From Escherichia coli (GTDB lineage Bacteria; Pseudomonadota; Gammaproteobacteria; Enterobacterales; Enterobacteriaceae), in assembly GCF_013315695.1 (NCBI RefSeq), contig NZ_CP054353.1: a stretch of 64,000 nt of DNA, one strand, 5' to 3'. Positions 9,001 to 12,000 of the stretch are shown in pieces. Position 1 is the stretch's first letter. Each line of letters starts with the position of its first letter. A program made the position numbers.

Positions 9001-12000
9001 GAATGATTTGCCCCAGACTATATTCTGAAGGCACGGGACCGCCAGAAGACGGTTTATTCACCACCATCGCACCTGCGGATTGTCCCATGCTGATTGCCGT
9101 TTCGGTATTTTTCGGCCGCCAGACTTTAAGGAATAAAGCGAGTGAGACGATACTCACCAGCGCCGAAGTAATATCCGGCAGTTCCGGACCAATATAGTTA
9201 GAGGTAAAGAACTGCGTGACAGCGAAGCTTCCCCCAGCAACCAGCGCCGCTGGCCACGTCTCTTTCACCCCTTTCCAGCCGTCCATCATTGCTACCAGCC
9301 AGAACGGCACAAGAACCGACAGGAACGGTAACTGACGTCCCGCCATTGCGCCAATGTGGAACGGATCGATTCCCGTTACCTGACCGGCGACCAGAATCGG
9401 CACGCCCAACGCACCAAACGCCACCGGCGCAGTATTGGCAATCAGACACAGCCCCGCCGCGTATAACGGTTTGAAGCCCAGGCCCACCAGCAGCGCACCG
9501 GTAATCGCCACCGGCGCACCAAAGCCAGCCGCCCCTTCCAGCAGCGCGCCAAAGGAGAAACCAATCAGTAACACCTGTAAACGCTGATCGTCAGTGATGG
9601 AGATAACCGAGCTGCGGATAATATCGAACTGACCGCTGGCAACGGTTAATTTATAGAGGAACACCGCCGCAACAATAATCCACGCAATAGGCCATAATCC
9701 ATAAATAAAGCCATAGCCCGCAGCAGCAAATGCCATATCAATCGGCATTTTAAAGGCGAATATTGCAATCAGGATAGATAATATAAGGGTTATTGCTCCA
9801 GCGACATGTCCTTTCAGACGTAATACCGCGAGTGCAACGAAGAAGAATATTATCGGGATCAGGGCGACCAGAGCGGATAGCCCCAGTCCTCCCATCGGCA
9901 TATACATTTGGGTCCAGGTAACCATATTGTTCAGTCTCTTATTATCTTTATATGCTTGATATACTTAAGGTTGTAATAAGCAAAAGAGGACTGAACTGTA
10001 AAATATAGGCGTTATACTTTACAGCAACAGTACGCTGCTAACGCAATTGCTACCTCTGGCATAACAAGTATATCGGGTAAGGGTTTCTGTTCCGCACACG
10101 CAGGCGCAGAATATCGTTAAGATGTCCATATTGTTGTTTTAGGCCCGCTAGTAATGCGCTACGGGTATTTAATATTGTTAAACCCTGATAATCGCTCCGG
10201 TTATTTCCGGGATAAATGTACTACCGCAGTTACTATCATAGCCCCGACAATAAAACTTGCCGGGGCTTTTTTGACGCTATTAATGACTTTCTTTTTCGCG
10301 TAAACGCCAGGCGTGTAATAACGGTTCGGTATAGCCGTTTGGCTGTTTCACGCCGAGGAAGATTAAATCGCTGGCAGCTTTAAAAGCACACGAGTTAGCG
10401 AAATTCCCCGCCATCGGACGATAAGCCGGATCGCCAGCGTTTTGCTGATCAACCACTTTCGCCATATTCTCCAGCGACGCCTGCACCTGTTCTTTGGTCA
10501 GAATACCGTGACGTAACCAGTTGGCGATATGCTGGCTGGAGATACGCAGCGTTGCGCGGTCTTCCATCAGCGCCACGTTGTGAATATCCGGCACTTTTGA
10601 ACAACCAATCCCCTGCTCCACCCAACGCACCACGTACCCCAGAATCCCCTGCACGTTGTTATCCAGCTCTTGTTGGATCTCTTCCACCGACCAGTTAGCG
10701 TTTTCAGCCACCGGAATAGTCAGCAGATCGTCCAGCAACGGTTCAAATTCAGCATTGAACTCGCTCTGGGCAATGTTGGCCTGCACGCTCTGTACGTTGG
10801 TTTGGTGGTAGTGCAGCGCATGGAGCGTAGCAGCGGTTGGTGACGGAACCCAGGCTGTGTTTGCCCCGGCACGCAGTTGGTCGCCCTTCTGGCTGTACAT
10901 GTCTGCCATCAGGTCCGGCATTGCCCACATGCCTTTACCGATTTGCGCTTTACTGCGCAGCCCACAGAACAGGCCGGAAAGCACGTTATTACGCTCGTAG
11001 GCTTTGATCCAAGGCGTCGATTTCATCTGATTTTTACGCAGCATCGGGCCAGCTTCCATCACCGAATGCATTTCATCGCCGGTACGGTCGAGGAAACCGG
11101 TATTGATGAACGCCACGCGGTTGCGCGCCTGAGCGATACAGCTACGCAAGTTCAGCGAGGTCCGACGTTCTTCATCCATAATGCCCATTTTCAGGGTATT
11201 CGGTGCCATACCGAGCATTGTCTCAATGCGGGTAAACAGTTTGTTGGCGAACGCCACTTCCTGCGGACCGTGCATTTTCGGTTTCACAATATAGACGCTG
11301 CCAGTGCGCGAGTTTTTCTGCACTTTTAAATCATAGAGGGCAATCGCGCCAGTCATGACGCCATCAAGAATGCCTTCCGGGATTTCATTGCCTTCGCTGT
11401 CCCAAATCACAGGAATGGTCATCAAATGACCCACGTTGCGGATAAACAGCAGCGAGCGTCCGTGCAGAGAAATTTCAGAGCCATCGGCGGCGGTGTAATG
11501 ACGATCGTCATTCAGTTTACGCACGATTTGCCGACCGTTTTTTTCCATTTTCTCTTGCAGAGTCCCCTGCATCAGGCCCAGCAGGTTGCGGTACAGCAGG
11601 ATTTTATCTTCCGCATCAACCGCCGCGACCGAATCTTCGCAGTCGAGAATGGTACTGATGGCCGCTTCGACGATAACATCGTTGATATGCGCCGGATCGT
11701 CTTTGCCAATCCGCCCGTTGGCATCAATTTGCAGTTCAATATGCAGACCGTTATTTTTCAGCAAAATGCAGGTCGGCGCAGCGGCATCGCCACGGTAACC
11801 GACAAACTGCGCCGGGGTACGTAACGTGGTTTCTTTACCATTTTTCAACTGGATGCGTAATTGTTTATCGACCACCTTAAACGCCACCACATCCTGATAG
11901 CTGCCGTTTTCCAGCGGTAGTGATTCATCGAGGAAACGCCGAACCCAGGCGATAACCTGCTCACCGCGTTGCGGATCGTAGCCGCTGACCATCGCCCCTT

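Follow-up and report, generated by a model that had tools for sequence, protein, structure and literature searches.

A single GC-rich hairpin was found in the spacer between glcB and glcA (positions 10240-10267 of the window, the 64-kb stretch of E. coli DNA analysed here), with the 3' end of a minus-strand RNA on one side of it and the coverage boundary of a plus-strand RNA on the other. The explanation favoured here, with moderate confidence, is that this one hairpin is common to two convergent transcripts, serving as a canonical intrinsic terminator for an antisense RNA and as a 3'-end hairpin without a U-tract for the glcB mRNA. The locus is already known (E. coli C0719/glcB); its boundaries are better defined here, and it is not a new element. 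Three published but unconnected records are tied together by the analysis, namely C0719 from Rfam and array data, ES170 from RNA-seq and the glcB 3' end from Term-seq. The practical value is modest.

The hairpin in the glcB-glcA spacer

The operon has been described as glcDEFGBA (PMC10272880). The upstream of the two genes considered here, glcB (10280-12451, minus strand), encodes malate synthase G and its mRNA ends at the hairpin. The downstream gene, glcA (8243-9925, minus strand), encodes a glycolate/lactate permease and lies beyond the spacer. Both identities were taken from the annotation of identical or near-identical records. A 354-bp gap inside the minus-strand glc operon had been pointed out in a preliminary description of this DNA, and the spacer was confirmed at 9926-10279. 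No feature is placed in it by the PGAP annotation. An ORF of 36 aa on the minus strand (10129-10019) was considered as a gene and is not claimed as one. It is not preceded by a Shine-Dalgarno sequence, it would encode 36, 24, 34 (frameshifted) or 12 aa depending on the lineage, and all of its SNPs within E. coli are non-synonymous.

The palindrome, also listed by an inverted-repeat search, gives an RNA hairpin on either strand. The plus strand of 10240-10267 reads AGCCCCG-a-CAA [TAAAAC] TTG-c-CGGGGCT, which forms a stem of 7 + 3 bp interrupted by a 1x1 A/C internal loop. On the minus strand the stem consists of 11 contiguous base pairs, because one G-U pair is included. A run of six T residues follows on the plus strand (10267-10272), with a G directly after it at 10273; the run corresponds to the U-tract of a canonical intrinsic terminator on this strand, while for glcB it is a stretch of A residues ahead of the hairpin. 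A GC hairpin followed by T6 on the plus strand had been noted in the preliminary description and both elements were found, but the T-run is separated from the glcB stop codon (10280-10282) by 7 nt (10273-10279) and not by 8 nt.

Folding of a 44-nt segment resulted in a free energy of -15.2 kcal/mol on the plus strand (shuffled sequences -7.2 +/- 2.0 kcal/mol, z -4.0) and -21.1 kcal/mol on the minus strand (z -5.1), and on neither strand did any of 200 shuffles fold as well. The hairpin is real, and in E. coli it is more stable in the glcB sense. On the plus strand a GC-rich stem-loop of -14.7 kcal/mol is followed by the tail UUUUU(U)GACG, which scored 3.8-4.3 as a T-tail. The minus-strand tail, AUGAUAGUAACUG, is not a U-tract and scored 0.78. 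The hairpin at 10240-10267 was absent from the output of a simple terminator scan of the window, because the 1x1 internal loop breaks the rule of a contiguous stem with a loop of 3-8 used in the scan. This is a limit of the scan and not evidence against the hairpin.

The plus-strand RNA and the 3' end of glcB

A candidate sRNA, mentioned in the preliminary description with neither name nor strand, could be identified as C0719 (Rfam RF00117) on the plus strand. The full model (1-222) matched at 10004-10225 with 297.1 bits (E 1.3e-78), which exceeds the gathering score of 50 bits. The K-12 coordinates of C0719, 3119380-3119601 (v2), convert exactly to this interval, which lies between glcA (yghK) and glcB. 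C0719 was described as a candidate sRNA of E. coli and Shigella from oligonucleotide-array transcriptomics (Rfam RF00117), and is absent as a feature from the current NC_000913.3 record. Its overexpression gave no biofilm or motility phenotype, and one transposon insertion at the C0719 site lowered group II intron retrohoming. The match to this array-defined core stops 15 nt before the hairpin, so that the hairpin and T-run (10240-10272) are located 15-47 nt past the 3' end of the model, outside it; the last positions of the model are unpaired and contain no terminator.

A longer plus-strand RNA has been reported for the same place. ES170 was listed at NC_000913.2 3119349-3119648, strand '+', 300 nt (Rau et al. 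2015, PMC4676190 Additional file 2), and its coordinates were converted to 9973-10272 of the window and the conversion verified. The RNA-seq libraries were directional TruSeq small-RNA libraries of gel-selected 50-500 nt RNA, and C0719 and the overlapping ES170 were both assigned to '+' in a list that flags two-stranded cases as '+/-' (PMC4676190). ES170 is weakly expressed (mean expression value 37); compared to batch, its level was 3.5x higher in the transition phase and 7.2x higher in the stationary phase (PMC4676190). Its 5' boundary lies 31 nt before the 5' end of the C0719 model, and its 3' boundary, a coverage boundary, falls on the last T of the T6 run (10272). The coordinates may be rounded, since the length is exactly 300 and the ES list is over-rich in lengths of exactly 100, 200 and 300. 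ES170 is most likely the full-length form of C0719, with the catalogued 222 nt as the inner part of an RNA of about 300 nt, because the hairpin and T-run lie past the model and ES170 starts 31 nt earlier. The catalogued C0719 interval would then be too short on its 5' as well as its 3' side.

A plus-strand promoter was looked for in the spacer, as recommended in the preliminary description. By eye, an extended -10 promoter-like motif, TGaTATACT, was seen on the plus strand at 9957-9965, 7-8 nt upstream of the 5' boundary of ES170 at G9973, but a sigma-70 scan of the spacer returned no -35/-10 pair, and no good -35 element is present for the motif. In the 64 kb, one match to TGNTATAMT was found (9957-9965) where 2.4 were expected, a frequency that is not significant by itself. 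The pattern TG-n-TAT-NN-T is kept in all lineages compared, including Raoultella (TGGTATGCT). Judged from its sequence and position, TGaTATACT probably acts as the promoter for ES170. The element TATACTTAA may have a sigma-S flavour, judged by the RpoS -10 consensus.

From the hairpin and T-run it had been proposed earlier that a plus-strand transcript ends here, at about 10273. This is supported by C0719 lying on the plus strand and by ES170 ending at 10272. The transcriptome records agree with the proposal in part: the RNA-seq boundary of ES170 is at the expected place, but the Term-seq tables of Adams et al. 2021 (LB OD 0.4, LB OD 2.0 and M63) list no plus-strand 3' end near K-12 31216xx. 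The supplementary files of TERMITe, Cappable-seq and SMRT-Cappable-seq, perhaps partial lists, have no entry for the locus. The plus-strand end is defined by an RNA-seq coverage boundary together with sequence features and not by direct 3'-end mapping.

On the minus strand a 3' end has been mapped directly. Term-seq in LB at OD600 2.0 placed it at K-12 3121590 (-) with a mean of 47,630 reads, classified as 'primary' for glcB and 'antisense' to C0719 (Adams et al. 2021). This position corresponds to 10236 of the window, and the published 61-nt context string matches the conversion exactly. The glcB-sense RNA ends in ...GGGGCUAUGA, 4 nt past the stem, which supports the earlier suggestion that the hairpin also serves glcB. 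According to Adams et al. 2021, 3'-5' exonucleases trim back those transcripts that do not end at an intrinsic terminator. The two convergent transcript ends overlap by 37 nt (10236-10272), the plus-strand end being a coverage boundary.

The strength of this minus-strand signal could mean that the hairpin belongs to the glc operon alone, as an element for the 3' end and stability of the glcB mRNA, with C0719 and ES170 as low-level pervasive antisense signal or glc mRNA debris and the plus-strand T-run as merely the A-run that often precedes such hairpins. Only for the minus strand has a 3' end been mapped directly, with a strong signal; a plus-strand end appeared in none of the three Term-seq conditions, and in E. 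coli the glcB-sense fold is the more stable one, as given above. The removal of C0719 from the current K-12 record, the lack of a biofilm or motility phenotype upon its overexpression, and the induction of ES170 in transition and stationary phase, which parallels the phase of the glc 3' ends, point in the same direction. Against this, ES170 was put on '+' by directional libraries in which two-stranded cases were marked, and both of its boundaries coincide with plus-strand signals, the end of the T-run and the extended -10 motif. Minus-strand debris would also be unlikely to leave a gap of 7 nt to the glcB stop codon. A hairpin for the glc operon alone is considered rather unlikely.

An explanation for the overlap of the two ends could also be a collision-type bidirectional terminator, in which the end at 10236 is due to true termination, as polymerases paused at the hairpin meet head-on those transcribing C0719/ES170, and not to trimming. 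The 3' ends, mapped or inferred, overlap across the hairpin as in E. coli bidirectional terminators, and both RNAs were reported in stationary-type conditions. Such a model requires heavy traffic from both sides, while ES170 is weakly expressed. Furthermore, read-through past the hairpin must be substantial, because glcA is described as a gene of the same operon. Termination by collision is regarded as distinctly unlikely.

In the favoured explanation of one shared hairpin, a plus-strand RNA of about 300 nt would begin near G9973, probably from the extended -10 motif TGaTATACT, and run antisense to the whole glcB-glcA spacer. Rho-independent termination of this RNA would occur once the GC stem 10240-10267 has formed before the U6 at 10267-10272. 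A minus-strand polymerase leaving glcB would transcribe the same palindrome into a stronger hairpin with no U-tract after it. In the glcB sense the hairpin is probably a weak terminator, because no U-tract follows the stem, and some transcription would go on to glcA. The hairpin may then act as a barrier, where 3'-to-5' exonucleases or collisions with the convergent polymerase would determine that the glcDEFGB RNA ends 4 nt beyond the stem.

Conservation of the hairpin and the spacer

Seven lineages were compared, among them E. coli, two intermediate clades, E. albertii, a clade with 88% identity in GlcB and Raoultella. The intermediate lineages were obtained from a protein search with contig look-ups and from a DNA-pattern scan of metagenomes. 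The matches listed from a GlcB search of contigs were E. albertii and genes of Pseudomonas and Burkholderiales with about 65% identity. The C0719 model matched in E. albertii (273 bits) and in the lineages L089 (289 bits) and L085 (103 bits); no match to it was found in Raoultella.

Nine sequence variants of the hairpin occur across the seven lineages, all of which retain it, and the changes preserve Watson-Crick or wobble pairing. A run of 4-7 T on the plus side is kept in 7/7 lineages, while the adjacent spacer to the stop codon varies. Such a run would be needless for a hairpin that is purely protective against exonucleases, which argues further against a role in the glc operon alone. Across the seven lineages the T-tail score was 2.85-4.29 on the plus strand and 0.35-1.47 in the glcB sense, where the tail is never U-rich. 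With a terminator discriminant of the d'Aubenton-Carafa type, the plus strand was positive in four of the seven lineages and the minus strand negative in all seven; for E. albertii L005 and L112/L113, the plus-strand stem has a mismatch and the discriminant is negative. Out to Raoultella, the terminator keeps the same orientation. A strand preference from G-U wobbles was also considered, as G-U pairs were seen by eye solely in the glcB sense in four lineages. This argument was dropped: over 9 pairs in 9 variants, the share of paired cells was 91.4% for either orientation, with weak covariation.

REP elements are common in intercistronic spacers, and the hairpin, a GC-rich palindrome, might be one of them, or else a palindrome of some other mobile or protein-binding kind that has nothing to do with transcript ends. 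It was found at a median of 1 and a maximum of 2 places per genome across 4543 E. coli genomes, and neither Rfam nor a repeat search gave a relative of it in the window. In distant lineages it has a fixed place 7-17 nt after the glcB stop and carries its own sequence changes. A palindrome of this kind is hardly credible here.

The spacer as a whole is unusually conserved as well. Its identity is 94.9% to E. albertii, where synonymous sites are at 66-71%, and 75% to L085, where they are at 48-52%, which nearly equals the conservation of first and second codon positions. GadY is a cis-antisense sRNA in the gadX-gadW spacer, and by analogy C0719/ES170 could pair with the intercistronic RNA and lead to RNase III processing or remodelling of the glcA leader. 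In this case glcA would be uncoupled from glcDEFGB and the end at the hairpin would be a processing product. The complementarity of the RNA to the spacer is complete and extends to 48 nt before the glcA start codon AUG, and the spacer is far more conserved than synonymous sites in E. albertii and L085. A 12-bp helix is also predicted that could sequester the ribosome-binding site of glcA; the arm that would do so is complementary to the 5' part of ES170. This helix shows no covariation, however, and was not found in Raoultella. In the p19/RNase III duplex tables, searched for part of the relevant coordinates, a duplex is present inside glcB and none in the spacer. For the body of the spacer (9973-10235), folding was indistinguishable from that of shuffled sequences on both strands (z +0.03 and -0.73); the significant z of -4.0 for the whole minus-strand spacer stems from the hairpin and the glcA-proximal part. 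Regulation of the GadY type is considered highly improbable. A long-range inverted repeat (9958-9966/10066-10074) was rejected, being broken by single changes in L099, L112 and L085.

In a broader form, the whole 354-nt spacer might be a conserved two-strand regulatory module, in which a stationary-phase antisense RNA (C0719/ES170) shares one hairpin with the operon RNA and sets the transcription or translation that reaches glcA. The antisense RNA could do so by directing cleavage between the two cistrons, or by pairing with the helix arm that would sequester the glcA ribosome-binding site. Such a module is unlikely; if true, it would account for a degree of spacer conservation close to that of first and second codon positions. 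If the antisense RNA did control glcA relative to glcDEFGB, this would add a GadY-like case in a metabolic operon.

Comparison with known systems

The plus-strand RNA agrees with C0719 in locus, strand and match to the full 222-nt model. It differs from the family model in that the terminator hairpin and T-run adjoin the family member and are not part of the model. As with GadY, C0719/ES170 lies opposite an intercistronic spacer, is complementary to it and overlaps the 3' end of the upstream mRNA, and an increase of ES170 in stationary phase has been reported. With about three times the length of GadY, C0719/ES170 covers the entire spacer.

The plus-strand face of the hairpin fits a canonical intrinsic terminator in sequence, with six G-C pairs at the base of the stem, an apical loop of 6 nt and U6 directly 3'. 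Two features are different: the plus-strand stem has a 1x1 A/C internal loop, and the minus-strand hairpin has no U-tract although a 3' end was mapped to it. In 2019, Ju et al. reportedly described overlapping terminators of this bidirectional kind, located between convergent E. coli genes. In E. coli bidirectional terminators, convergent 3' ends overlap across a hairpin and neither a U-tract nor Rho is needed (10.1101/2022.10.23.513370). At the glcB hairpin the convergent ends likewise overlap, and one direction has no features of an intrinsic terminator. In contrast to these terminators, one partner is here a weakly expressed antisense sRNA inside an operon and not a protein-coding gene, and one face is, by its sequence features, a fully canonical intrinsic terminator.

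Intercistronic stem-loops such as the malE-malF REP hairpins and the hairpins of the puf operon protect the upstream mRNA from 3'-5' decay. The glcB hairpin resembles these as a stable hairpin after the upstream cistron with a 3' end a few nucleotides past the stem. Unlike the malE-malF hairpins it is single-copy and therefore not a REP, and a further difference is its terminator signal, which serves the other strand.

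The glcB-glcA hairpin and its surroundings

The minus-strand genes glcB (10280-12451) and glcA (8243-9925) of the glc operon are separated by a spacer of 354 bp (9926-10279), and glcA is the final gene of the operon, described as glcDEFGBA (PMC10272880). In the 30 genomes listed, PGAP annotated no feature within the spacer. The window is not from K-12; its spacer differs from that of MG1655 at three positions and is identical in other E. coli genomes. NC_000913.3 coordinates were obtained by adding 3,111,354 to window coordinates, and NC_000913.2 coordinates are 1,978 below those of version 3. 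Both conversions were verified against published strings and the Rfam match.

A GC hairpin followed by six T on the plus strand had been noticed in this gap in the preliminary description and was confirmed from the sequence. The hairpin, AGCCCCG-a-CAA[TAAAAC]TTG-c-CGGGGCT in plus-strand reading, occupies 10240-10267. Between the T-run (10267-10272, plus strand) and the glcB stop codon lies GACGCTA, a gap of 7 nt and not the 8 nt first given; in every other respect the description was exact. As RNA, the hairpin segment had folding energies of -15.2 (plus strand) and -21.1 kcal/mol (minus strand), each better than 200 of 200 dinucleotide shuffles. It was not listed by a consensus terminator scan, and the sole cause was the internal loop in the plus-strand stem. 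Identity as a REP or other repeat was ruled out by copy number.

The hairpin belongs to an already catalogued locus, namely C0719 (Rfam), ES170 (Rau 2015) and the glcB 3' end (Adams 2021). Added here are the connection of these records, the probable true boundaries and a predicted promoter for the antisense RNA, and the conserved terminator orientation across lineages.

Transcripts recorded on the two strands

By Term-seq, a 3' end was mapped on the minus strand at 3121590 (LB OD600 2.0 sheet, mean 47,630 reads). It was classed as 'antisense' to C0719 and as 'primary' for glcB, a class meaning merely that an end lies <=50 bp downstream of a same-strand gene (PMC7815308). The position corresponds to 10236, the A of ...GGGGCUAUGA, 4 nt beyond the stem, and the published 61-nt context string agrees exactly with the coordinate conversion (PMC7815308).

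On the plus strand, RF00117 (C0719) was the single family matched in the region by the Rfam scan (10004-10225, 297 bits, full 222-nt model). The K-12 candidate sRNA mentioned in the preliminary description is C0719, on the plus strand. The model ends 15 nt short of the hairpin and has no terminator of its own. C0719 has candidate status only in the literature and is among the variable sRNAs, missing from some E. coli and Shigella lineages. Its overexpression left biofilm and motility unaffected, group II intron retrohoming was lowered by a transposon insertion at its site, and its up-regulation was reported late in fed-batch culture. Of 5426 complete E. coli genomes, about 884 were found to lack both the spacer and the glcB 3' end; where C0719 has been reported as lost from some phylogroups, it is therefore probable that the entire glc region has gone. 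A 12-nt inverted repeat, CTGTAAAATATA/TATACTTTACAG (9996-10024), lies at the annotated C0719 5' end; on the minus strand it folds into a hairpin of 13 bp, conserved throughout the Escherichia lineages.

ES170 was reported as a 'novel' 300-nt transcript at 3119349-3119648 of NC_000913.2, from libraries of 50-500 nt gel-selected RNA made with a directional small-RNA kit. Relative to batch growth it was 3.5-fold up in the transition phase and 7.2-fold in the stationary phase (PMC4676190). In the window it spans 9973-10272, with C0719 wholly inside and the 3' boundary at the final T of the run. The plus-strand end anticipated near 10273 thus has a counterpart in the ES170 coverage boundary at 10272 and none in the Term-seq tables, which hold zero entries starting 31216 and so give no plus-strand end for the T-run (PMC7815308). 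Lengths of exactly 100, 200 or 300 nt exceed chance in the 'novel sRNAs' list (8 in the first 162 entries; Additional file 2, PMC4676190); some of its coordinates may therefore be rounded, and caution applies to the ES170 boundaries.

The plus strand of the spacer has an extended -10 motif, TGaTATACT (9957-9965), with no convincing -35. The motif, with a 5-of-6 hexamer, lies 7-8 nt upstream of the ES170 5' boundary at G9973. It matched once in the 64-kb window against about 2.4 matches expected by chance, so its weight rests on position and not on rarity. Together with the next TAA it reads TATACTTAA, which we take to be typical of RpoS-dependent promoters, and such a reading would fit the stationary-phase increase of ES170. 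Near the locus, a promoter scan detected a single sigma-70-like -35/-10 pair, TTTATA-18-AATAAT (9650-9679, plus strand), which is antisense within the 5' part of glcA. This promoter-like pair could be a source of extra plus-strand transcription into the hairpin.

Conservation and possible further roles of the spacer

This GlcB type was rare in enterobacteria among the matches listed. Relatives beyond E. coli and E. albertii were L085, a clade whose GlcB is 88% identical, Raoultella planticola (L086, 81%) and the intermediate, metagenome-derived clades L099, L090 and L112/L113. The order glcB, spacer of 331-398 nt, glcA was found in all relatives recovered, Raoultella included. On sequence comparison, the entire spacer is far more conserved than the synonymous sites of the flanking genes: identity between E. 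coli and E. albertii was 94.9%, against 66-71% at four-fold degenerate sites, and identity to L085 was 75%, with four-fold sites saturated at 48-52%. The TG-n-TAT-NN-T motif of the predicted promoter was also kept in relatives. The Rfam C0719 model scored 103 bits in L085 and gave no match in Raoultella.

Disrupted loci were also encountered. E. coli PEC408 (NZ_CM168008.1) carries an IS5-family (ISKpn26) element at 2874-4047 of that sequence, adjacent to a type II Zorya defence system; the insertion replaces glcA and the spacer to about 10233, and the hairpin and glcB alone remain. Unrelated DNA replaces the sequence upstream of mid-spacer in one metagenome contig (L137) and inside glcB in another (L121), and these junctions are rearrangements or assembly chimeras.

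The hairpin was present in every lineage compared, and its sequence changes preserve pairing (GCCCCCGGC/GCCGGGGGC in Raoultella, CCCCGUCA/UGGCGGGG in L085). Across nine variants, 91.4% of cells were paired in either orientation and covariation was weak; the alignment is therefore silent on which strand's hairpin is selected. The flanks, and not the pairing, tell the strands apart. In all lineages the plus-strand hairpin is followed by 4-7 consecutive T, though the sequence on the stop-codon side varies, and the glcB-sense tail is U-rich in none. T-tail scores were 2.85-4.29 on the plus strand versus 0.35-1.47 in glcB sense. The classical discriminant was negative in glcB sense in 7/7 lineages and positive on the plus strand in 4/7. 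Judged from the T-run and tail scores, the canonical terminator points consistently to the plus strand.

A helix of 12 bp with one bulge can form on the operon strand between GUUCAGUC(C)UCUU (9996-9984) and the Shine-Dalgarno/spacer region of glcA, AAGAGACUGAAC (9940-9929). This RBS-sequestering helix was retained by RNAalifold. It does not vary within Escherichia and is broken at two points in L085; none was found in Raoultella, and there was no covariation. ES170 has complementarity to the sequestering arm in its 5' part, which would allow a GadY-like or anti-antisense role for C0719/ES170. A 36-codon minus-strand ORF (10019-10129) starts MDILTIFCACVCG..., and its start block ATGGACATCTTAA does not vary between E. 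coli and Raoultella. The ORF has no Shine-Dalgarno, and its length varies by lineage (36, 24, 34 (frameshifted) or 12 aa). All three spacer SNPs between the window and K-12 lie in it and are non-synonymous.

Probable convergent transcript ends at one hairpin

A plus-strand transcript ending at the hairpin, or a hairpin serving glcB, had been suggested beforehand, and this interpretation was supported by the ES170 end and the glcB 3' end of Adams 2021. The simplest account, which we consider reasonably probable, is that one hairpin is common to two convergent transcripts, whose ends would overlap by 37 nt there. We regard the minus-strand half of this model as nearly certain; its plus-strand half, in which an RNA of about 300 nt (C0719/ES170) would be stopped by ordinary intrinsic termination, depends on one RNA-seq boundary together with sequence and conservation. 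The main rival, that the hairpin is used by the operon strand only and the plus-strand signal is noise, is favoured by the missing plus-strand end in Term-seq, the weak expression of ES170 and the deletion of the C0719 feature from the K-12 record (absent from NC_000913.3). It appears unlikely, however, as directional libraries assign ES170 to '+', where two-stranded cases are labelled '+/-' (PMC4676190), both ES170 boundaries coincide with plus-strand signals, and the T-run is conserved.

In the favoured model of two convergent transcripts, the operon transcript carries the stronger version of the hairpin, and its termination is probably partial because it has no U-tract. Partial termination is consistent with the position of glcA as last gene of glcDEFGBA. 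Trimming by a 3'-5' exonuclease to the stable stem would leave an end like the one mapped, 4 nt beyond it; such trimming is invoked by Adams 2021 for non-intrinsic ends (PMC7815308). At bidirectional terminators of convergent E. coli genes, polymerase collisions have been proposed to complete termination (10.1101/2022.10.23.513370). Either trimming or collision-assisted termination may give rise to the operon-strand end. The bidirectional terminators of convergent E. coli genes have the same anatomy as the glcB-glcA hairpin, with 3' ends overlapping across it.
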